From assembly GCF_055900595.2 (NCBI RefSeq), contig NZ_CM148325.1: 64,000 nucleotides of DNA. One strand, given 5' to 3'. Every line of letters starts with the position of its first letter. Position 1 is the stretch's first letter. Position numbers and translations under genes: made by a program. Positions 18,752 to 32,500 of the stretch are shown one piece after another. A model generated the notes under the pieces. The model did no database searches and was not told where the DNA came from. It saw only the letters and a program-made list of their open reading frames with translations.

Positions 18752-19822
18752 TTATTTAATCCGGGCCATCGCGTTTCTCAGTGCCAAATCTGCCTCTTCC
18801 GTTATATCCAGGCTTTTCTGCAATACCGCCTCTGACCGGGTCAGTGCCTGACGTGCTGCCAGCGGTTTCCGGATATGCTCCATCGCCAGCATCGTGTCTT
18901 CATAGCCCTGCTGACGCCAGGCGTCGGTATGTGCCGATGTAAAACTGAGCAGACCGCCGCTGTTGCCACCATCACCTGCATATTTCAGCCTTTTCCGGGG
19001 ACGGATCTCAAGGATTGTGGTGTCCGGAAAAGCCTGGCGATCCCATAAAGAACCGTCACTCAGATGCGTCACAATCACCATATTGCATCCGGCATCGACC
19101 AGAGGTGTCACAGGGGTATTTCCCTGCATATTTCGCCATCCTCCCATACCACCATCACCGAACATTGTCCCCTGAACCTCACGGGGACGGAACAGCAGGG
19201 GCAGCGCGGCTGACGCAAGCAGAGCCTCTTTCTGCTGTCCGCGGGGCAGGCTCTGGATATGCTGAAAAACGGCGTTTTTCGTGGTTCCGACACCCAGTTC
19301 AGCACGAATGCAGTCAATAATATCCTGCATGCCCCCTTCTGTGGGGTACAGCGACACATACAGCGGTAGCCCGTCTGCCAGAGCATCAGTATCAAGATAA
19401 TGATCCATCAGCGCTGTCAGGGGTTCATCTGACAACAACGGCTGAGCCATCAGATTGTCAAACCCGTTGATTGTCGATATATGGCGAAGAAGCGTCGTAA
19501 GCAGTGCTCCTGCACGTCCGGGGATCTGGCAGAGGTTCATTGCCTGGAACAATTTTTTCAGCAATGAAAAGTAAACCAATCTGTTTACCGACAGCACCTG
19601 ATTATTCCCCAGATGATCCCAGAGCGCCTCCAGGCGTACGGCAGCTTCTGACAGATCGGGAGAGGCCACGATAATGGCACCATTGAATGCGCCAATGCTG
19701 GCCCCTGAAACCATGCTGATCTGTGTACCACACTCTGCCAGTGCCTTAACCACTCCCGCCTGATAAGCGCCCACCGCCCCGCCACCGGACAGCACCAGCC
19801 CCGTTTTCATTTCTGTACTCAT
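18752..19822 (-). CDS. Patatin-like phospholipase
   Basis: Oxyanion-hole LSGGGAVGAYQAG, nucleophile elbow GASIG (GxSxG) and catalytic DGG (FGDGGMGG); start overlaps upstream stop (ATGA). Confidence 0.85.
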   Translation of the reverse strand: MSTEMKTGLVLSGGGAVGAYQAGVVKALAECGTQISMVSGASIGAFNGAIIVASPDLSEAAVRLEALWDHLGNNQVLSVNRLVYFSLLKKLFQAMNLCQIPGRAGALLTTLLRHISTINGFDNLMAQPLLSDEPLTALMDHYLDTDALADGLPLYVSLYPTEGGMQDIIDCIRAELGVGTTKNAVFQHIQSLPRGQQKEALLASAALPLLFRPREVQGTMFGDGGMGGWRNMQGNTPVTPLVDAGCNMVIVTHLSDGSLWDRQAFPDTTILEIRPRKRLKYAGDGGNSGGLLSFTSAHTDAWRQQGYEDTMLAMEHIRKPLAARQALTRSEAVLQKSLDITEEADLALRNAMARIK

Positions 19823-20724
19823 GCAGCCCCCTTCTGAAATATTTCATCGACCATACTTTCAGAGAGGCGTTCTGCAGAGCAGAGGCGAGGCATGCGAACC
19901 GGTAAGTGTTCTGCAGCCTGCGTGGTTGACCAGATCACCGGATGCTGCTCTTCACTGCACCAGTCTCCCAGCCAGTTAATCGCGTCATGCCACTCGTTAT
20001 CTGCCTGCTCCCGGCCCTGACCACCAAGCCAGTCCAGAGTGTTCAGACGCACGGTTGCACTACCGCCACTCTCCTGTGCCATCTGCGTTAATGCTTTATG
20101 TCTGAGAATATCCAGTAGCTGGTTAACCTGGCCTGTTTCGCTCTGACGTATCACATCACCAAACGCGCCCCAGCGAAGCTCTTCAAGTGCCACATAACAA
20201 CGTCCGGCAGGGGAAAATGACGCATATCGCCCGGCGCTCCACCATGAGAATATCTGCTCAAGATGTAACTGCGCCCGCTGAACCTGGTCAACACGGTGGA
20301 GTTTTTCTTCAAGATGATTCAGTTTATGGTGAACCTGATCGGCCAGGGTGAGTAACTGCTCCCGCGTATCTGCGGAATAATGCGCCAGCCTGGCTGTATC
20401 ACTGACCAGTGAACTGACCCTGTCGTTTACCCGGGTAATCGCGTAGTTTGTGGTGGCAAGTGACGTTGTCATCTCCGTCAGCCAGCGCAGGGACGCCTCA
20501 ACGCCCTGTGCAAGCGACGCATTGATGGCATTCTGCCGTGCAGCGCCTTCGCCGGTCAGCCCCTCTTTTAAACGCCGGAAGAACGTGCGCTCTCCGGCCG
20601 TGCGGATATGCTCCTGTGCAACATCGATTCCGTTTGCGAAATCAACCACAAATTTTTCAGGAAGACAGGTGAGTACCTGACATACCCGGTTATCAGCAAT
20701 TTGTTGAATAAATGGTGAAGTCAC
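19819..20724 (-). CDS. Hypothetical 301-aa protein, translationally coupled between the dynamin-like and patatin genes
   Basis: ORF MTSPFIQQIADNRVCQVLTCLPEKF...; no motif recognised; 4-nt ATGA overlaps at both ends. Confidence 0.7.
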   Translation of the reverse strand: MTSPFIQQIADNRVCQVLTCLPEKFVVDFANGIDVAQEHIRTAGERTFFRRLKEGLTGEGAARQNAINASLAQGVEASLRWLTEMTTSLATTNYAITRVNDRVSSLVSDTARLAHYSADTREQLLTLADQVHHKLNHLEEKLHRVDQVQRAQLHLEQIFSWWSAGRYASFSPAGRCYVALEELRWGAFGDVIRQSETGQVNQLLDILRHKALTQMAQESGGSATVRLNTLDWLGGQGREQADNEWHDAINWLGDWCSEEQHPVIWSTTQAAEHLPVRMPRLCSAERLSESMVDEIFQKGAA

Positions 20725-23117
20725 AGCATTGTCTCCAGCTCTTCCCTCAGCGCCTTACTGTCAGTAATGAGCTCAGGAACCCTTTCATTTAATGCCTGAA
20801 GTCGCCCGGTAAGTCGTTCCTGCGCCTGCTGATCGCGTTTATGATCTTCAGAGCTCTGAATCAGCGTGTTACGCAGTTGTTCAACTTTCTCCCTGAATGC
20901 GCAGAAAAAGGCATCGATTTCCTGGCGGACGGGCTGGTTAATATCCTGCTCAATGGATGCCTGCAGCTCCCCGAAATATGCCCGGGTCAGTGACATAACT
21001 TCCTCTCTGACCTTGTTGATATTGATCACGCTGCGACTCACATCCTCGTCATAGTTTTCCCAGCCCAGGTCACTGGTGCCAAACCATCGACAAACGGTTC
21101 CCCATACGCCACTCTGCCGACGGCGACGGGTGACGGTCTCCGTTCTTTCCTCCATAAGCGCACTCAGATTTATTTTTACCGCGAGCCGGGTCTGTAACTG
21201 GCTGACTGCCGGAAAACTGATTTTTACGGTAAAGCCCTCATCCTCCAGGCGGGCATTGATGCGACCGGCAATGTTTTCTGTGGCGTACAGGGCCGTGCCA
21301 CGAAAACCTGTTTCAATCCCGCTGACGATTTTCTCCAGCTCAGGCCGGAACTGTGCTTCAGCCTCACGGTGCAGGCTGGTCACGGTCGATTCGATTTGCG
21401 TCATCAGTTCAAGGGCTTCCCTGCGATCACTGAATTTTATTTCGGGGCTGTCCGGGGCAAAATCTCGTTTCCTGTAATCCTCCCGGCCCTGGTTGTTGAT
21501 ACCGGACCATTGAGAAATTTTCCCCCATAATCCGGACTGAGACCTTCGTTGTTCTGCGTCTTCTTCCTCCAGCATTTGCTGTTCTTTGCGTTTACCGCTT
21601 CTGAAATAGTCATTCAGCTCCTCTTCCAGTGAGGTGCAGACCCCCGTCAGTAATTCCCGGGTTTTAGTATCGATCTCCTCCATGGCCATTCTGACATCAG
21701 TGGTCATCTGCTCCTGACAGTCCGCGATTTCCCGGATATCCGCAAGCAGGCTGGTGATATGCGACTGCAGTGACTGAATGCTTTGCTGTAGCCCCTGATG
21801 GCGTAACAACAGGTATTCACTGATATTTTCTGCATTCTGCATCAGTTTTGCGGCGGCAGAGTCAACCGCCAGTGCCGCAGCTCTGGAATGTGAGCTCTGT
21901 ATGACTTCCGTTATCAGTTGATCGATAAGTGAGCCTTCCCACAGGTCTGTCGCCCCTTCAGTTGCCAGTTCACTGTCTTTACAGACGTATTCTTTTTTCA
22001 TGCAACCGAAGGCACCTCTGATAAAATCATCGACCCAGGCTTCATCAACAGGAAGGGTTCCGTTTTTCCGTAACTCATGAAGCGCACGGTTAGCCAGGTA
22101 TGCCTGGCGTGAGGATCCGGGATAAACGCGGGAGGCGGGCAGCACATTGCTGTTCAGCATTGCCGGAACTTTCTGGCGTACGGCATCTGCCCCATCGCCA
22201 TTGCGGTCTTTCTCATCAAATTTATTGACCAGTACAAACAGGCGGCCGGCTGATACGTCAGCAATGGCATTAAGCTCTTTACGGACGTCTTCATCCGCTT
22301 TTGAGTTCATCTGTGTGTAATCCATCACAGCCAGAACCGCAGAGGCTTTCTGCAGTTGATCCCGCATCATCACTTCCATCTGCGGTTGTCCGGCCTCATT
22401 AGGGCCGGGGGTATCCAGCAGTGTGAGTGTTCCCTGGCATGCATCCATCCCCACCAGATGGCTGAATTCCACGTCGATCACCGGCAGTTTCTGCACTTCT
22501 GCGTATTCATCAAAAGGAAATTCAGTCCCCATTGCCGCAGCAAGACGAACCAGATCGTTTAACGATGCCAGTCCGGTAAAGATTTCCTCCTCCCCGTGGT
22601 ATTCATTTTTGAGCCAGCCATCATCCGTCAGAATATCCAGCAGTTCGCGGGTATCCCCGGTTTGCTGCAGGGTCTGTGCGACCTGCTGTCCTGCCGGGGT
22701 GGCGAGTTTTTCCTGCAGTGTGATTAATAAATTGCGGACAGGCTGAATATGTTCCAGATGGAGAACCGGCTCAGTTTTTCCGGGAACGTGGCGGATGAGC
22801 GTCGGTACAGAGGTCATGGGGCGGTTACGGTTAGGCAGAATTTCCTGCCCCACAATGGCGTTGATGGTGGTTGATTTGCCTGCTTTCATCGTGCCGACAA
22901 CAGCCAGCACCATCTCCCTGCGGGCGGTTTTGATTTGTTCGCCCTCCAGCTCCTCAATTCTTTTCAGTGCTTTCTGTTTATCAAAAAGCAGTCTGTTTTC
23001 GTTCTTACTGTCAGATAACACATCTGGCTCCTCAACCATTTGCCGGAGCAGATTAATGTTCAGTTGCAAAAGTCGGTCGGCTTCATCACAAAGCAGGGCG
23101 ATGTTCTTTTCGTGCAT
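20721..23117 (-). CDS. Dynamin-like large GTPase (bacterial dynamin-like protein, 798 aa)
   Basis: G1 GTMKAGKST, G3 DTPG, G4 NKFD, followed by a long helical, charge-rich stalk region. Confidence 0.85.
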   Translation of the reverse strand: MHEKNIALLCDEADRLLQLNINLLRQMVEEPDVLSDSKNENRLLFDKQKALKRIEELEGEQIKTARREMVLAVVGTMKAGKSTTINAIVGQEILPNRNRPMTSVPTLIRHVPGKTEPVLHLEHIQPVRNLLITLQEKLATPAGQQVAQTLQQTGDTRELLDILTDDGWLKNEYHGEEEIFTGLASLNDLVRLAAAMGTEFPFDEYAEVQKLPVIDVEFSHLVGMDACQGTLTLLDTPGPNEAGQPQMEVMMRDQLQKASAVLAVMDYTQMNSKADEDVRKELNAIADVSAGRLFVLVNKFDEKDRNGDGADAVRQKVPAMLNSNVLPASRVYPGSSRQAYLANRALHELRKNGTLPVDEAWVDDFIRGAFGCMKKEYVCKDSELATEGATDLWEGSLIDQLITEVIQSSHSRAAALAVDSAAAKLMQNAENISEYLLLRHQGLQQSIQSLQSHITSLLADIREIADCQEQMTTDVRMAMEEIDTKTRELLTGVCTSLEEELNDYFRSGKRKEQQMLEEEDAEQRRSQSGLWGKISQWSGINNQGREDYRKRDFAPDSPEIKFSDRREALELMTQIESTVTSLHREAEAQFRPELEKIVSGIETGFRGTALYATENIAGRINARLEDEGFTVKISFPAVSQLQTRLAVKINLSALMEERTETVTRRRRQSGVWGTVCRWFGTSDLGWENYDEDVSRSVININKVREEVMSLTRAYFGELQASIEQDINQPVRQEIDAFFCAFREKVEQLRNTLIQSSEDHKRDQQAQERLTGRLQALNERVPELITDSKALREELETML

Positions 23118-23169
23118 TATTTAACCTTCCTAAGACGCATTTTCATGACAACCACGGAGGAGGTCATTT

Positions 23170-23250
23170 ACTACAAACGATCGTTTATAACGATCGATAT
23201 GATAGTAACGATCGATGTATTCTATTAACTTGAGAAACACAACGCAAGGG
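23170..23250 (-). promoter_or_regulatory. Putative promoter with three clustered GATC (Dam) sites; candidate phase-variation switch
   Basis: Minus strand TTGCGT-17 bp-TAGAAT, then CGATCG boxes at plus 23179, 23192 and 23210 within imperfect AACGATCG(T/A)T repeats, about 60-100 nt upstream of the dynamin start. Confidence 0.45.
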
Positions 23251-24159
23251 GACAACCCGGGTATGGCTGCGTTTGCATAGTGTTTTCATGGAGTTAAAAA
23301 TCTGTAACAACAGCCTGGTACATCACCACCGGGTTCAGAAGAAAATCCAGTTCCATACCGCGCGGGCAACAGAGACCACCTAGTCACGGACGGCGCGCAG
23401 AACCGTGCGTGCAACAGAGGCAATGCAGACGCTCTCCGCCGTGTCAAATATCCGGTCCACCGCACCGGTAAACTGTTCACGGGCCTGAGACCGGACAGAC
23501 TCCGTGCGCAGCTCGTCCTGCAGGCGGGTCATCAGGGGACTGGCGGCATGGTCGGGAAGTGCTGTCATGAGCGCACTGACCAGCGTATCCAGTTCCCAGC
23601 CGGTGCGGGCCGATACGGCAACAACCCGATGTACGGGCCGGAACAGACGGAATACCGCCTCCGTTTTTTCGCGAATGTTCTGTGCCTGTGCGGGAGAAGG
23701 CTGAATACCGGCCATATCCCATTCATGGCAGGGCTCCGTTTTATCGGCCTGCATCACCACAAACAGTACCCGCTGATGTCCCCGGTGCAGGATGTGTCGC
23801 CAGAAATACTCATCCACAGACAGGGCACGGTCATCGGCTTTAATCAGCCACAGTACCAGGTCCAGTTCGAGCAGAATGTCACGGTACAGGGCTTCATACT
23901 CTGCATCCCTGTCCCGGCTCTCGCCCACCCCGGGCAGGTCAGTGATAACCATGCTGTGACCATGGCCATTCAGACGGAAGCGCTGCACTTCCCGGGGGCC
24001 GGCGTGAACATCACTGACCGGGGTGACCTCCCCCTGAAACAGCGCATTACAGAGTGAGGATTTACCGGCCCCGCTTTTACCCATAATGCCAGGCACGGGT
24101 TCGTGACTGGTGAGTTTGCGCAGATGTTCGTAAGCGACTCGTCAGAACCGTATTGATAT

Positions 24160-25731
24160 TTACTGAGAGCTCAGATCAACTTTCCAGGGCAACAGATCGC
24201 GTACCCGGTTTGCCGGCCAGTCCTGGATATGTTCAATGACGTAACGCAGCCACTTTTCTGGCTCCACATTGTTCAGACGGCATGTGCCGATCAGCGAGTA
24301 CAACACCGCCGCATGTTCACCACCGCTGTCGGAACCCGCGAACATCCAGTTTTTCCGGCCTACGGCCACTCCCCGTAAGGCGTTCTCTGCGATGTTGTTG
24401 TCGATTTCCACCCAGCCATTACTGCAGTACACGTTCAGTGCATCCCACTGTTTCAGCAGGTATGCGAACGCTTTTGCCGTATCTGAGTGACGCGACAGTG
24501 TTTTCATCTGTTGCTGTATCCAGTCATACAGTGACTGCATCAGTGGCGCGGCTCTGGCTTTTCTTGCCGCCAGACGCTGTTCTGCTGAACAGCCCCGGAC
24601 CTCTGCCTCGATGGCATACAGTTCACCGATACGCTGCAGGGCTTCCGTGGTGATGTAGGTGGGCGCTCTTGCATGCACATCGTGGATTTTTCTCCGGGCA
24701 TGAGCCATACACGCGGCTTCCGTTATTCTGCCGGATTCGTATAACGCCCGGTAACCACCGTAAGCATCGGCCTGAAGCACACCGCTGTAACCGGCCAGGT
24801 GATTTTGTGGATGGATACCTTTCCGGTCCGGACTGTACGCGAACCAGACCGCCGGGGGCATCTGTGAACCGGCGTTACGGTCATCACGGACGTAGACCCA
24901 CAGCCGGGCTGTCCGGGTTTTACCGCTGCCCGGCTCCTGGACCGGGACGGGGATATCATCAGCATGGACTTTACCGGGCATCAGCACATACTGGCGCAGG
25001 ACGTCATACAGCGGCTCCAGCAGTTCAGCAACAGCACCTGTCCAGCGCCCCAGTGTGGCACGGCTCAGCTCCACTCCCTGACGACGGTATATTTCTGACT
25101 GGCGGTATAACGGCAGATGGTCTGCATATTTCCCGGTGACAACATGGGCCAGAAGCCCCGCTCCGGCATAACTGCGTGCAATGGGTTTTGAAGGTACTGG
25201 TGCCTGCACGATATGGTCGCACCGGCAACAGGCCTGTTTCGGACGTTGTGTTTCGATAACCTTAAAGGCGCTGCTGATAAGCTCCAGTTGCTCTGACACA
25301 TCACATCCCAGAGAACTGAGTTCACCACCACAGGCAGGACAGCATTCCTCTTCCGGCCGGATAACCCGGGTTTCACGGGGAAGTGAGGCCGGTAACGGTT
25401 TACGGGCTGAAGACTGGCGCAGGGCGGATGGCAGTACCGGGTCATATTGCTCACCCAGCGTTTCCGCCATTTCTTCCTGAAGTGCGCTGATTCGCTCCTG
25501 TGCTTCCTGTATCTGCCGTTCGGTTTTTGCACGAAGTTTTTCTGAGCTTTTACCGAACTGCATACGTTGCAGTTTCGCAACCAGCGCCTTCAGCCGGTTG
25601 ATTTCGGAAGCATAAGCCGCCACCCGCTGTGAGAGCAGGCGGTTGTATTCAGCCATCTGGCGGATGGTGTCCTGTTGCGTCTGCAACAGTGCCCGCAGGC
25701 GGGCGTTCTCATGAGCAAGTGAGGTGTCCAT
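24160..25731 (-). CDS. tnpC: IS66-family transposase TnpC (Orf3)
   Basis: 523-aa ORF with N-terminal coiled coil, zinc-ribbon CPACGG and C-terminal ...[27 protein letters not shown]. Confidence 0.9.
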
Positions 25732-25750
25732 ATCCTCACTTTACAACGGG

Positions 25751-26098
25751 TTATATGCGGATTCCAGCGCGTTCCGTTCGTTTCGGGTGCTTCCAGTTGA
25801 TACCTTCAAGAAGCATGGATAACTGAGCCGGAGTAAGGTGCACCTTGCCGTCACGGGTGACTGGCCAGACGAAGCGGCCCCGCTCCAGGCGTTTGGTGAA
25901 GAGGCACAGTCCGTCACTGTCAGCCCACAACACTTTTATCTGGTCACCCCGGCGTCCGCGGAAGATGAACAGGTGTCCGGAGAACGGGTCATCCTTCAGG
26001 ACGTTCTGAACTTTTGATGCCAGGCCGTTAAAGCCATTTCGCATATCGGTGATACCTGCAACCAGCCAGATACGCGAACCTGCAGGGAGAGATATCAT
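25751..26098 (-). CDS. tnpB: IS66 Orf2 (TnpB)
   Basis: 115-aa ORF MISLPAGSRIWLVAGITDMRNGFNGLASKVQNVL... Confidence 0.9.
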   Translation of the reverse strand: MISLPAGSRIWLVAGITDMRNGFNGLASKVQNVLKDDPFSGHLFIFRGRRGDQIKVLWADSDGLCLFTKRLERGRFVWPVTRDGKVHLTPAQLSMLLEGINWKHPKRTERAGIRI

Positions 26099-26775
26099 CA
26101 GTGGCTGCTCCCTTTTATTTCGCGGATAAGTGTCTGTAATAACGCCGGCGTCAGTTTACCTTTAAGCCTGAGAGTTCCGGCCGGCAGAACCAGCTCACAA
26201 CACAGACTGTCGGACGGTGTATTTATCCGCTCTGGTTCCTGTGCGGGGGCCGGGATTTTATTATCCGGCTCCGGCGTTAACGTCACGGGAAGCAGTGCCG
26301 GCATATTTTTTCCGGAAGGCAGCAGGCCACCTTTCCGGTATTGATGGCGCCAGTTGAAGAGCAGGTTATCGTTGATTCCGTTTTCCCGGGCGATCTGCGC
26401 CACACAGGCTCCGGGCTGCAGTGACTGCTCCACTAAGGCGATTTTAAACTCATAAGGGAAGTTGGGCCGCCGGGGACGTTTTTTTACCACGGGGGCTTCG
26501 GATATAACGGTGCTTTCAGGACGTACGACTGGTACCGTGGAAAATTGTCCGTAAAGGCAGGCATCAAGTTCCTGCTCCGACATGCCTGCGGGCAAAGGCC
26601 ACGAAAGGCCAGCTCTCCGAAAGCGCACGAACATACTACAAACTGTTGATTTTGGTACACCCAGGCGACGCCCGGCCACAACCCGGGGTAAATGTTCTTC
26701 AAAGTGAAGACGTAAAGCTTCAGTGATCCAGGTCCGGTGTTTCATACGATAGTGTCCATTAAAAATGATGGACAT
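26098..26775 (-). CDS. tnpA: IS66 Orf1 (TnpA, HTH protein)
   Basis: C-terminal half matches IS66 Orf1 (FKIALVEQSLQPGACVAQIARENGINDNLLFNWRHQYRKG...); start codon uncertain. Confidence 0.8.
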   Translation of the reverse strand: MSIIFNGHYRMKHRTWITEALRLHFEEHLPRVVAGRRLGVPKSTVCSMFVRFRRAGLSWPLPAGMSEQELDACLYGQFSTVPVVRPESTVISEAPVVKKRPRRPNFPYEFKIALVEQSLQPGACVAQIARENGINDNLLFNWRHQYRKGGLLPSGKNMPALLPVTLTPEPDNKIPAPAQEPERINTPSDSLCCELVLPAGTLRLKGKLTPALLQTLIREIKGSSH

Positions 26776-26997
26776 TATTTTTGTAGAGCCGGAGGAAACA
26801 GACCAGACGGTTTAAATGAGCCGGTTACAGATGTTCCAGGATGTGACGGGAAAGTGAGTAAGGCAGGGAGGAGAGCGGTTTTTCAATTGCCTCAATGGCA
26901 TCAGACGGATTCATACATGTATTCCCGGTGAAAAAAGACAAAACCCCGCGCACCGGAAAGGTGGCGGGGGATTCACGGAAATAATATCTGTCTGAAA

Positions 26998-28161
26998 TTA
27001 TCTGGAATCGATTTGGCTGTTCTGCCTGGTTGCCACCAAATCATGGTACGCCTGCTCAATCATTTCATTCAGCAGTTTTTTTGGGAGGACACCACGACTT
27101 CGGGCAATACTTTCAAGCTGTTTGTGGATTTTTCCGGACAGTTTCAGAGGGACGGAACCATCAGCACGTTCATCACGCCTTTTTTGTTGCTCCCGGGCAC
27201 TTTTCAGCTCATCAAGAAGAATCGCTTTATGCTGAATCCTGGGGGCCTGGAAGGAGACCTGCGTAAACTTCGCTCTGTTCCGTCTGGGATTACTTTCCAG
27301 TAAAAACTGTACCTGTTGCTCATTCCAGCCCTCCCAGTTATCAAACGTGGCGCAGGCAAACCAGTATTTCTGCTCCGGGGTAAGGGGATTCAGCGGGGTT
27401 CCCACACACCGGACCTGCATGGCGTTCCATAACCAGTCACACTGTTCACTGTCCCTGCTGTCCACCCACGAAAAGGGGGAGGGGTAATCATTGTTTATGC
27501 TGGCCCATTCAGAGAATACTGAGTTGATAATCGTCCTCGTAGCCTCTGGTCCGGATTTCAGCAGGTAACTGGAGCAGAACCATATAATTTCACGGTAGAT
27601 TTTATCCGGATGCACGGTGCGCATCGGCTTTTCTCTGGGACCGGCAATCTTCGGTTGCGATGGAAACCCCGTGGCAAACCGCAGATGTTCCGGGGGCATT
27701 CCTGAACGTTTTTCAGGAATGGGTGTGAGTCCTGCGTTTCTGGTCTTTTCCGCTTGTCCGGTATTGCCTCCGGCCGGAGTGTTGTCGGGAGTATCTTCCG
27801 GAGGCGAGGTGTTTTCATTAGTTGGGGGAACAACAGCAGAACTGTCCATCTCCGGAATGGGTTGAGGGGCATAATCACTGTGGTAGCCAGGGGAAAGCGT
27901 TAAGTCCCGAAGGGTGACATCAGGTTCCGGGCAGTGAGTGCCACCGGGAGTGAACGGGAGTTGTTGCTTTTGGGAGAAAAATGTATTGTGAATGCGGGTA
28001 TACAGCTGGAACAGAAAAAAATAAGATGCCCGTGGTTCTTTTTTTAACCACTGTGTATATTCCTCTATGGCACCGAGCTGTTGTTTGTGCCGTTTTACAG
28101 CATCGATATACGGACAGCTGGTGCAGATATCATCCAGTTCCTTTCCCACAATACACCTCAC
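26998..28161 (-). CDS. Hypothetical island protein (387 aa; Pro/Thr-rich linker, basic C-terminus)
   Basis: Long ORF upstream of the yeeP-like gene; no motif recognised; start uncertain. Confidence 0.5.
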   Translation of the reverse strand: MRCIVGKELDDICTSCPYIDAVKRHKQQLGAIEEYTQWLKKEPRASYFFLFQLYTRIHNTFFSQKQQLPFTPGGTHCPEPDVTLRDLTLSPGYHSDYAPQPIPEMDSSAVVPPTNENTSPPEDTPDNTPAGGNTGQAEKTRNAGLTPIPEKRSGMPPEHLRFATGFPSQPKIAGPREKPMRTVHPDKIYREIIWFCSSYLLKSGPEATRTIINSVFSEWASINNDYPSPFSWVDSRDSEQCDWLWNAMQVRCVGTPLNPLTPEQKYWFACATFDNWEGWNEQQVQFLLESNPRRNRAKFTQVSFQAPRIQHKAILLDELKSAREQQKRRDERADGSVPLKLSGKIHKQLESIARSRGVLPKKLLNEMIEQAYHDLVATRQNSQIDSR

Positions 28162-29680
28162 CTGCTTTTCTCACATTTGCAGATTTTAAAAAAGCAAACA
28201 AAAACCTCCGTACATGATGTACAGAACAATCTACCAGGTAGTGGCGTCAGAAAACCCCCGGGCCGCCTGCACTTTCCGGAATGCGCCGGTTATGAAAAAC
28301 CGGAAATTCAGTCTCTGTTGTAAGATGTACCCTCTGATACTACGTTTTCTCTGTGTATTTAACTCACTGTATTTATTGTCTTTTTAAGCTTGACTGATAT
28401 TCTCCGGTCATAGTGTGCCGGATATACATCCCGTAAACTTCTCATTTTTATATAAAAATACCTGCACTCTCTTCAGCGCATCTGTCTCCTTTAAGTAAAA
28501 AATGTTTTCACGTATTGCTGTAAATTCATTTTAAATCAGTATATTACCTTGATATTGCTGTCTCCTGGTTTGATGCGTAATCGTTCTGCCTTTCTGGATG
28601 ATTCTGGTGCTTCCGGGTGCATTCTCCTCTGCACATGCAACAGTTCGTCATCGCCACGCTCCCAAAAAGCATATAAAAACGAATCGAATTTGATATTTTT
28701 TTCAATCGTTTTTCATAGGAATTTCGTAGGGTATTCTCCGCTATAACCTCCATATTTGCTGCCTTTTTCTCCATAAATCGTATGCAATATAGCCTGTCTG
28801 TCAAGACCTCTTCTCTGCTGTTGAGGAGACGATCTCATTTTTGGTCTTTTCCGGGAGAGAGGCTGTCAGATGAGCGAGCCGGATATACTGTCAGAGGTAC
28901 ACCCCGTAGCAGACCTGTGCTCCCATTTCCGCGATCCGGAACCAACAACACCCTACGGTTAATACCATTTGAAGCGTCAGGTACTGCAGGAAGTTCCCCC
29001 CTGCGCGGACATCGGTTCCTGCCGACATCTCACAATACGGCCAGACTGTCATGCAGTAACACCCGCATGCGGTCTGCGGTTTTAAGCGCACTCTCCCGTT
29101 TTCAGTGCACCGATAATGCGTCATAGTAAGTCTGGGGGAAGTTACGGAATGCCTGTTAAGTGGTGCCGTGGGTGGAGACAGCTTACTTTTCTACAGCAAC
29201 TGCAGTCATTCAGGATGATCAGGAGATATTCTGTCAATGTCACGATCCTGCCATTTTCGTACCCGCTAAGATACTTCCGTTACTGATGCTGTCCGCTTTT
29301 CACCATTTCATCCTCACTGACAGGCGTTGCGTTTTGGGTCATCACCACAGCTTTACGTTTCTCTTTTAACCGGTAACGCTCTCCTTTGATATTCAGCGTG
29401 GTTGAGTGATGCAGCAGTCAATCCAGGAGCGCTGTTGTCCGGCAACCACCATATCAACTTCTTCCCGGGTGTGGCGGAGAGGTGGTATCCTGGCTGAGTT
29501 TCGAAGCGAACCGTTCTTTTTGACGGGCGCATTTTACGTCCGGGCTGAATGTAGTAACGCGGCATGGAACGTCGGCCCGTATACCATTGCCTTAATCTCC
29601 GCAAAGATAACCTCGTCATTCCGGACATTCTCTGCCAGGCATATGTCGATGTAATCCATAAACGATTTCAGCTTACCCCT

Positions 29681-31638
<1,958 letters not shown>

Positions 31639-32500
31639 TTTGTGGCCAGTCTTTCTGGCTGGCGGTTCAGGGGATGTTTTCTGGTTATCGTGTACCACAA
31701 AGCAGGGATATTGCCCCGATAGTCACATTTCAGATTGATCGCGGTCTGAAGATGTGGCACTGAGGTAACGTGCTGGTGTCACTGGTATTGCTGAAGTTAT
31801 GGTTTTTCGGGGTCAGGTGAGCCTGTTGTGTGTATGCTTTTTGTTCAGGTCAGAGGGGGACTGTGTGGACAGCGGCTTTTGTCTCCGGGCATTCACGCCT
31901 GAACGATGAATGCGATTTTCAGCAATATTTGTCTTTGTGACACTCTCTGGTTGAGAAGCTAATGCGCGCCCCTGTTTCCACAGAGAATGAGGCTTGCCAT
32001 CAGCCGAAACATCAGTATTCCACGCCATACAGACGGCGCCTGACCATGTGCTGATGCAGGTAAAATGTTTCACTACAACTGTTCGGGTTGCTATGCAACG
32101 AAACAGCGATTCTCACGATCTTTAACTGCAACGTTTTTCCGCCTGAAAGCTGACTGCCTCCTGCTGAGGTGGGAGGCTATGATTCAGTGCGTTTATAGTC
32201 TCCGGGGTATGCATGTACCGGAGCATACCATTTCTGGTGGATAACAAGCCGGCACATTCAGACTGCAGTGAAGATGGAAGCACCTGGTTGTGAAGAACGT
32301 TTCTGCCCGTGGCTGCTTCGCATCATCAATGGTATTCATACCCGCTCAGAAATGACCGGGTGCTGAAGCCCTCCGTTATCGCGCAGTATAATGACGTATA
32401 TGATCTGTGGACGAGTGAGCGGCGTGCCTGATGTACGCCGCTATTACTGTATTTTACCACAGGGCTGGTTTTCTGCTGCCAGCCCTGTGGTTCTCAGACA

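Follow-up and report, generated by a model that had tools for sequence, protein, structure and literature searches.

Genetic organization of the inserted element

The window analyzed in this study (64,000 nucleotides of contig NZ_CM148325.1, RefSeq assembly GCF_055900595.2; all positions refer to this stretch) contains a complete insertion sequence, ISCro1, of 2699 bp (24130–26828, minus strand), located within a GTPase gene of a CP4-44-like island of Escherichia coli. ISCro1 belongs to the IS66 family; its name was first given in Citrobacter rodentium ICC168, and the element is widespread in E. coli chromosomes and plasmids. An IS66-type element of this size and position had been recognized in an earlier note on this DNA, and a specific name can now be assigned to it. 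Over its full length it shows 100% identity to copies from many E. coli chromosomes and plasmids that carry the RefSeq annotation "IS66-like element ISCro1 family", and it has the length and the 8-bp duplication of the target site (TSD) published for ISCro1 (PMC12115866). The identification is based on the RefSeq-annotated copies and the published length.

The element lies in the same orientation as the interrupted gene, with its tnpC-side end at 24130 and its tnpA-side end at 26828. Alignment of both ends (GTAAGCGACTCG... and ...GAGCCGGTTAC) revealed imperfect inverted repeats, in which 15 of the first 21 positions match. The repeat on the tnpC side (24130–24153, minus strand) reads GTAAGCGACTCGTCAGAACCGTAT on the plus strand, while that on the tnpA side (26805–26828, minus strand) reads GTAACCGGCTCATTTAAACCGTCT as its reverse complement. 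Imperfect terminal repeats starting with GTAAGCG/GTAA-CG are typical of the IS66 family, and such repeats are present here (GTAAGCGACTCGTCAGAACCG versus GTAACCGGCTCATTTAAACCG).

Three ORFs, all on the minus strand, show the tnpA-tnpB-tnpC layout of ISCro1: (i) tnpA (26098–26775), encoding an IS66-like accessory protein of 225 aa (NF038385; 294.5 bits, cut-off 150), (ii) tnpB (25751–26098), encoding an IS66 accessory protein of 115 aa (NF033819; 128.9 bits, cut-off 50) and (iii) tnpC (24160–25731), encoding an IS66-family transposase of 523 aa (NF033517; 477.9 bits, cut-off 180), in which the match to transpos_IS66 spans residues 106–501. The stop codon of tnpA overlaps the start codon of tnpB (ATGA; base 26098 is common to both), and tnpC starts 20 bp past tnpB. 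All three ORFs thus score above the curated NCBIfam cut-offs and both ends are intact; judging from its sequence, this copy of ISCro1 is probably capable of transposition. The element itself does not differ from ISCro1, and only its insertion site is particular to this genome.

The interrupted gene and its genomic context

In silico excision of the element together with one octamer restores a reading frame (MNPSDAIEAIEKPLSSLPYSLSRHILEHLRKLTSHEPVPGIMGKSGAGKSS...) whose product contains an MMR_HSR1 domain (PF01926; residues 40–148, E 4.6e-12) with the G1 motif GKSGAGKS and a DLPG motif. The restored protein is similar over residues 1–274 to YfjP (47.8% identity) and YkfA (47.1%) of E. coli K-12 (E about 1e-84), and the restored gene shows 96.2% DNA identity to the K-12 yeeP region over 505 bp. 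This confirms the earlier description of a yeeP-like GTPase; the interrupted gene is the orthologue of yeeP in an island of the CP4-44 type. One fragment is named "YfjP family GTPase" in RefSeq.

The window is colinear with the island of E. coli S88, in which the genes of a CP4-type backbone (DUF932, antirestriction, YeeS, YeeT and CbeA/CbtA, downstream of the GTPase gene) are found beside yeeA-sbmC-dacD-sbcB. YeeP of K-12, encoded by a pseudogene in CP4-44, occupies the same chromosomal locus beside sbcB-dacD-sbmC-yeeA, and it is its surviving 3′ part that shares the 96% DNA identity, whereas the similarity to YkfA (CP4-6) and YfjP (CP4-57) extends over the full-length protein. The two loci differ in two respects. 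In K-12, yeeP is followed by flu (Ag43), whereas in the window a dynamin-like/RdcB-like/patatin-like operon is found in this position; furthermore, K-12 yeeP has been inactivated by a 5′ truncation, in contrast to the ISCro1 insertion and nonsense SNP described below. PADLOC analysis of the GTPase and its neighbours yielded only weak LeoBC-like and phospholipase matches (E 2e-5 to 5e-4), and no defence system could be assigned to these genes.

Target site duplication and the empty allele

The element is directly flanked by two copies of the octamer AGATGTTC (24122–24129 and 26829–26836), whose identity, claimed in the earlier note, was confirmed on re-inspection of both sides. On the gene strand the first copy reads GAACATCT and comprises codons E27 and H28 of yeeP and two bases of L29. 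Beyond the octamers, the sequences on the two sides show no relation, and the probability that two abutting octamers are identical by chance is 4^-8 (about 1.5e-5). A third, unrelated copy of AGATGTTC is present in the window at position 27683.

More decisive than this probability is the existence of an uninterrupted empty allele. A query composed of 600 bp from each side of the element plus one octamer was found as a single piece, with 100% identity, in many E. coli genomes, where the gene is annotated as "GTPase family protein"; 908 records were at least 99% identical and 927 genomes had at least 80% coverage. An 8-bp direct duplication also accompanies all other mapped ISCro1 copies of the yeeP locus. 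TnpC, a DDE transposase, would cut the two strands of AGATGTTC with an 8-bp stagger, and the octamer would then be duplicated by repair, as expected from what is known of the family; the structure left by such a cut and its repair is directly visible in the sequence.

The window contains one copy of ISCro1 only, and on both sides of it the DNA is colinear with the S88 island; a rearrangement was thus not involved. An IS-mediated one is ruled out by the single copy, by the identical TSDs and by the contiguity of the flanks in the empty alleles. Nothing observed contradicts a simple insertion with an 8-bp TSD, which the abutting octamers and the empty allele bear out. We therefore regard a simple, recent transposition of ISCro1 into codons 27–29 of the yeeP-type GTPase gene of this CP4-44-like E. 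coli island as established with very little residual doubt.

Effect of the insertion on the GTPase gene and the downstream region

The insertion splits yeeP upstream of the P-loop. Translation across the junction showed that the 5′ fragment (26829–26914, minus strand; ATG at 26914) encodes 29 aa and is closed by a TAA codon provided by the terminal GTAA of the tnpA-side IS end. The 3′ fragment (23380–24129, minus strand) comprises codons 27–275 up to a premature TAG, and both the MMR_HSR1 domain and its P-loop, GKSGAGKS, are located in it. The earlier statement that excision restores a continuous frame holds as regards the absence of internal stops, but the restored ORF ends at 275 aa instead of the normal 290. 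The cause is a private SNP at 23381 (TCG, Ser276, to TAG; T in the window versus G in 15 of the 15 loci compared). This G>T change removes the conserved C-terminal 15 residues; the usual stop lies 15 codons beyond the TAG (about 23335–23337), and a 290-aa CDS is annotated in other genomes.

With ISCro1 at codons 27–29 and the nonsense SNP at codon 276, the window lacks the intact 290-aa product of the family, and the gene is a pseudogene of the YeeP/YkfA/YfjP family. In front of the 3′ piece there are two in-frame stops, and no ribosome-binding site is evident; the GTPase is therefore almost certainly null. As to the inactivation proposed previously, the split ahead of the P-loop and the stops at both junctions are observed, while loss of function is a prediction drawn from them. 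The SNP, as a second lesion, fits a dispensable gene in decay. In principle, translation of a 234–238-aa protein retaining the P-loop could begin at the GTG of position 24096 or, three codons later, at an ATG. A TnpC-YeeP fusion or stop-codon read-through, considered since tnpC and the 3′ part of yeeP share a frame, is ruled out by the two stops between them. Transcripts leaving tnpC run in the same direction as yeeP.

The GTPase gene had also been described as lying just upstream of a putative switch. The region concerned (23182–23228), which contains three GATC sites and is agn43-like, lies, on the gene strand, some 900 bp downstream from the IS and has its own promoter-like site, so that any effect of the insertion on it would be indirect at most. 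Since the dynamin-like/RdcB-like/patatin operon has this promoter-like, three-GATC region of its own, a strong polar effect on it is not expected.

Recurrent insertion of ISCro1 around the start of yeeP

Analysis of other complete genomes revealed that ISCro1 and its close relatives have inserted repeatedly and independently at a local hotspot in other strains, and that the site occupied in the window is within this hotspot. At least 13 distinct site/orientation events were identified within 372 bp around the gene start, compared with 8 events in the remaining ~2180 bp surveyed; the flanking density is about 10 times lower (scan-statistic P about 5e-5, for a region chosen post hoc). In three-part chimeric control queries only rows including the locus-specific 300 bp were counted, and IS-IS junctions unrelated to the locus were ignored.

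Several targets have been used more than once: (i) in strains CDE6306 and TB354 the identical octamer AGATGTTC is occupied in the opposite orientation, (ii) at the +69 site (GCATCAGA) two IS variants whose termini differ in sequence have inserted and (iii) the +128 and +127 sites have been used in two paralogous islands. Same-orientation events outnumber those in the opposite orientation (about 9 sites versus 5). Insertions in the body of the GTPase domain are rare overall, and none was found in the survey between -137 and -429. About 115 bp inside the neighbouring dynamin-like gene there are two more insertions, at most 6 bp apart and of opposite orientation.

A search for a consensus around 15 target sites, aligned by IS orientation, gave nothing convincing. 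The best IR-like sequences within 700 bp on either side of the site matched at 13–14 of 24 positions, below the shuffle mean of 14.5, and the GC profile over the hotspot (0.42–0.65) was unremarkable, with no compositional anomaly.

Age and lineage of the insertion

The insertion itself is an ordinary knock-out by a known IS: another copy of a well-known element in a cryptic-prophage gene that is dispensable and has no known function. Its use is mainly in annotation (yeeP::ISCro1 pseudogene), and strain typing might also profit from it. Its description in the earlier note as datable is tenable only in a restricted sense: the ISCro1 copy has no private mutations and is a 100% match to widespread copies, so the event can be called recent, but no more than that.

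No 100% counterpart of the exact allele (IS variant, intact 3′ frame and nonsense SNP) was found among 5426 complete E. coli genomes. The closest filled allele is that of DSM 103246, with the insertion at the same site and in the same orientation and 99.5% identity across the junction. One shared origin, by descent or by transfer of the island, would make the insertion old enough for a lineage marker and is suggested by the common TSD and orientation and by right flanks without a difference over 1000 bp, but we consider it rather doubtful. Between the two ISCro1 copies there are 2 differences (positions 2099 and 2361), the left flanks differ by 6 mismatches and a 1-bp deletion in 2100 bp, a frameshift in DSM 103246 is absent from the window while the nonsense SNP of the window is absent from DSM 103246, and the site has demonstrably been reused in other strains. 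Repeated hits at this one octamer mean that the presence of ISCro1 here does not mark phylogeny cleanly, and the recurrent insertions warn against its use as a lineage marker.

Target preference or selection

The IS66 family is usually regarded as lacking a marked target preference. The clustering at the 5′ end of yeeP may nevertheless reflect a true preference of this family, with the structure of the local DNA, a protein bound to it or the topology close to the promoter as the cue and the insertion in the window as one of its outcomes. We give this explanation an even chance. It is favoured by the excess of events in the 372-bp region, by the reuse of AGATGTTC in reverse orientation, of GCATCAGA by two IS variants and of +128/+127 in paralogous islands, by the rarity of insertions in the GTPase body, although these would be equally inactivating, and by the paired insertions, in both orientations, in the dynamin-like gene. 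Against it stand the lack of a sequence consensus, of an IR-like sequence and of a compositional anomaly; moreover, the sample consists of natural isolates only, on which selection and common ancestry have acted as filters, some events are deduced to be independent only from orientation, IS SNPs or position, and the region was examined because of this very insertion.

Selection, instead of targeting, would give the same clustering if insertions were favoured or better tolerated wherever they shut off the promoter or N-terminus of yeeP or allow the IS to read into the gene. Decay of the gene is common: frameshifts or internal stops in yeeP are annotated in DSM 103246, ETEC1717, CRE1540, MS 119-7 and CDE6306, the gene is 5′-truncated in K-12 and it carries the nonsense SNP in the window; the excess of same-orientation events is also in line with selection. 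However, selection for inactivation should scatter hits, of either orientation and by other IS families too, throughout the GTPase domain, whereas the observed insertions are packed in ~370 bp, with reuse of exact sites and some of them upstream of the ORF, and no yeeP phenotype is known. We regard selection as an unlikely source of the pattern.

Returning to target preference, we tentatively propose, at slightly less than even probability, that the first ~150 bp of yeeP-type genes and ~230 bp upstream constitute a genuine regional hotspot for ISCro1/IS66 transposition, in which single 8-bp sites are reused both ways. Such a hotspot, if true, would speak for a cue in target selection, such as the structure of the DNA, a nucleoid protein bound there or the topology near the promoter. 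The ~370-bp region offers a compact natural substrate for experiments on the poorly understood target choice of IS66-family elements.

Literature searches returned no described yeeP or IS66 hotspot; they did return an ISCro1/ISEc10 hotspot in afa and an association of ISEc23 with the region near the CP4-44 end. The afa/dr regulatory region of E. coli ST131 is an IS integration hotspot in which ISCro1 and the IS21-family element ISEc10 recur at one site (PMC8764528), and this report also speaks for a target preference. As at yeeP, ISCro1 recurs there and ISEc10 is involved. The two hotspots differ in locus and in form, since in afa/dr one position is common to different elements, whereas around yeeP there are many ISCro1 sites over ~370 bp, in both orientations. 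Some of the ISCro1 copies at the yeeP hotspot carry a nested ISEc10, ISEc12 or ISEc62.

Identity, ends and target site of the inserted element

The 2699-bp element (24130–26828, minus strand) contains three ORFs, all on the minus strand, whose products clear the curated NCBIfam cut-offs: TnpA (225 aa; 26098–26775; NF038385, 294 bits, cut-off 150), TnpB (115 aa; 25751–26098; NF033819, 129 bits, cut-off 50) and TnpC (523 aa; 24160–25731; NF033517, 478 bits, cut-off 180). The stop codon of the first ORF overlaps the start of the second, and the third begins 20 bp past the end of the second. In a megablast comparison with 5426 complete E. coli genomes, many chromosomes and plasmids matched it at 100% over the full length, and the annotation of every match is IS66-like element ISCro1, with tnpA, tnpB and transposase. 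Since a 2699-bp ISCro1 on an IncHI1 plasmid also made an 8-bp target-site duplication (PMC12115866, published in 2025), the element is a complete copy of a known and evidently active IS. It is the only ISCro1 copy in the window.

The octamer AGATGTTC is present at 24122–24129 and 26829–26836, as read in the sequence and checked by script. The bases beyond the octamers differ both upstream (GAGTTTGCGC versus AGCCGGTTAC) and downstream (GTAAGCGACT versus CAGGATGTGA), so the octamers are not parts of a longer repeat. The intervening 2699 bp start with GTAAGCGACTCGTCAGAACCG, while the far end, in reverse complement, reads GTAACCGGCTCATTTAAACCG; these ends are imperfect inverted repeats in which 15 of the first 21 positions agree.

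An in silico empty allele (600 bp of left flank that include one octamer, joined to 600 bp of right flank) was searched for in the 5426 genomes. Many strains, S88 and O145:H28 RM13514 among them, have the 1200-bp sequence uninterrupted and 100% identical, and 908 records were at least 99% identical (annotation: “GTPase family protein / hypothetical protein”). On either side of the IS the window and the island of E. coli S88 are colinear, and this comparison of the flanks gave no sign of IS-mediated rearrangement at the site. The earlier note had described identical octamers around an IS66-type element and a clean, simple transposition; both descriptions hold. The insertion is an ordinary finding, a textbook 8-bp-duplication event of a known IS in a dispensable cryptic-prophage GTPase gene.

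The interrupted gene and a second lesion

After excision of the IS and one repeat, the minus strand reads MNPSDAIEAIEKPLSSLPYSLSRHILEHLRKLTSHEPVPGIMGKSGAGKSS... without an internal stop. The restored protein contains an MMR_HSR1 GTPase domain (Pfam; residues 40–148) and is 47.8% and 47.1% identical to K-12 YfjP and YkfA, respectively, over their full length; the gene DNA is 96% identical to the surviving part of the K-12 yeeP pseudogene. The locus adjoins sbcB-dacD-sbmC-yeeA and is followed by DUF932, antirestriction, yeeS, yeeT, cbeA/cbtA and yeeW genes, which places it at the CP4-44 position. On these grounds the gene is the yeeP orthologue, in line with the yeeP-like GTPase recognized at the outset.

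The restored ORF ends with ...LRAVRD followed by TAG, whereas K-12 YeeP, YfjP and YkfA each run ~15 residues further (VVSVARAVW...FF); the RefSeq product length for this allele group is 290 aa. Position 23381 is T in the window and G in 15/15 related loci aligned. This private G>T substitution changes yeeP codon 276 from TCG (Ser276) to TAG and costs the protein its conserved hydrophobic C-terminal 15 residues. Excision by itself would therefore not yield wild-type yeeP: the first reading was right about a continuous restored frame, but missed its early end.

Genes of the yeeP type are often pseudogenes independently of ISCro1, as in K-12 (L020) and the loci L001, L005, L009, L013, L014 and L015 of other E. 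coli genomes. The annotated lesions are frameshifts and internal stops, with a 5′ truncation in K-12. This frequency suggests that purifying selection on such genes is weak or absent.

Predicted effect of the insertion

The target octamer comprises codons E27–H28 and two bases of L29, upstream of the P-loop (residues 43–50). The 5′ yeeP fragment encodes 29 residues and is ended by a TAA derived from the IS terminal GTAA. tnpC and the 3′ fragment are in the same frame, with two stop codons between them. In the 3′ fragment, translation could restart at the earliest from a GTG at 24096 or from an ATG three codons on, and no Shine-Dalgarno-like sequence was seen ahead of either. The allele is almost certainly null, which agrees with the inactivation proposed in the earlier note. 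Since the IS and yeeP have the same orientation, read-through transcripts out of tnpC could cover the 3′ fragment. Strong polarity on the downstream operon would not be expected, because the latter has its own promoter-like site (23228–23199), overlapped by three GATC sites.

Recurrent ISCro1 insertions around the yeeP start

The sole feature that goes past routine annotation is the recurrence, partly at identical sites, of such insertions elsewhere. A junction search revealed 18 genomes with a piece of the GTPase gene close to an ISCro1 end, at differing spacings. The search was repeated with two chimeric queries (the gene 3′ end joined to either IS end), designed to detect insertions in either orientation throughout the gene and over about 350 bp upstream of it; the loci from the junction search and those with the opposite orientation were fetched and every junction was mapped.

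Relative to the window site (plus, toward the gene start; ATG at about +78 to +85), insertions in the same orientation were located at −64, −19, 0, +18, +20, +79, +234 and +387, at +69 (two strains, with IS copies that differ in terminal sequence) and at +128 (also +127 in an Ag43-linked paralogue). Those in the opposite orientation were at −429, −137, −96, 0 and +7. Every fully mapped copy had clean 8-bp duplications. CDE6306 and TB354 share the duplication AGATGTTC with the window but have the IS inverted; independent use of the identical 8 bp is the sole explanation found.

As a control, three-part chimeric queries were applied to the 950 bp on either side of the first survey. They detected three downstream insertions (one being the −429 site already counted) and four upstream; the loci of three control insertions were fetched, which confirmed them. 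Of the 21 site/orientation events in all, 13 lie within 372 bp (−137 to +234) of the 2550 bp surveyed (scan-statistic simulation, P ~5e-5). The flanks are a fair local control, because they have copy number, island context and, presumably, dispensability in common with the core. In the dynamin-like gene, about 115 bp from its 5′ end, L026 (Br_190_kylling, equivalent to window position ~22998) and L027 (08-00022, equivalent to ~23004) have ISCro1-like elements inserted ~6 bp apart in opposite orientations, a hint that ISCro1 may favour promoter-proximal coding DNA more generally.

No target consensus, IR-like sequence or compositional anomaly in the hotspot targets and their surroundings accounts for the clustering. 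A real regional target preference is the most likely cause, with roughly an even chance of being correct. Selection for yeeP inactivation, a weak candidate, would fit the frequent loss of the gene by other routes, but the body of the GTPase domain is almost insertion-free. A literature search found no description of an ISCro1 hotspot at yeeP; what has been reported is an ISCro1/ISEc10 hotspot in ST131, within the afa regulatory region (PMC8764528), and an association of ISEc23 (IS66 family) near the end of CP4-44 (bioRxiv 10.1101/527788).

Three hotspot copies of ISCro1-like elements, in L010 (510016), L012 (2020N21-246) and L013 (MS 119-7), carry a nested IS21-family element (ISEc10, ISEc12 or ISEc62) in the final 500 bp of tnpC, about 212–237 and 493–501 from the tnpC-side IS end, two of them within about 25 bp. 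This tnpC segment may be a second-order hotspot, and the nesting echoes the ISCro1/ISEc10 co-occurrence at afa.

Age of the insertion

No private substitution distinguishes the window ISCro1, whose whole sequence is shared by copies in unrelated strains and plasmids. This identity indicates a recent insertion but assigns no date; of the “datable” event of the earlier note, only the recency stands. The exact filled allele was absent from the 5426 complete E. coli genomes in the junction search. DSM 103246 has ISCro1 at the identical octamer in the same orientation, with two differing positions in the IS and, over 2100 bp of left flank, 6 mismatches and a 1-bp deletion; it lacks the nonsense SNP. 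Common descent and independent events at one octamer are both possible for this pair. Because the site is reused, yeeP::ISCro1 is not a safe lineage marker.

Neighbouring regions

Instead of flu, the CP4-44-type island contains, downstream of yeeP, an operon of dynamin-like, RdcB-family and patatin-like phospholipase genes (18752–23117, minus strand), which replaces Ag43. The dynamin-like protein (798 aa) is CrfC-like (NCBIfam, 556 bits, below the cut-off of 1146); the RdcB-family name comes from RefSeq, with no NCBIfam match. PADLOC gave only weak LeoBC-like and phospholipase matches for the operon.

The GATC sites at 23182, 23195 and 23213 lie 13 and 18 bp apart and overlap the sole sigma-70-like promoter match of the intergenic region between yeeP and the dynamin-like gene (23118–23379). 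Positions 23178–23228 align with the regulatory region of K-12 agn43 (flu), where the spacing of three GATC sites is 13 and 19 bp; by this alignment, a Dam/OxyR-type phase switch may control the operon. The region is presumably the “putative switch” of the earlier note.

Upstream of yeeP, an IS21-family element is present at ~29634–31639 (istA, 340 aa, 29771–30793; istB, 260 aa, 30790–31572). An IS66-family element takes its place in E. coli S88, which also has an ISEc43 copy that the window lacks; DNA upstream of yeeP is a general landing zone for IS elements.
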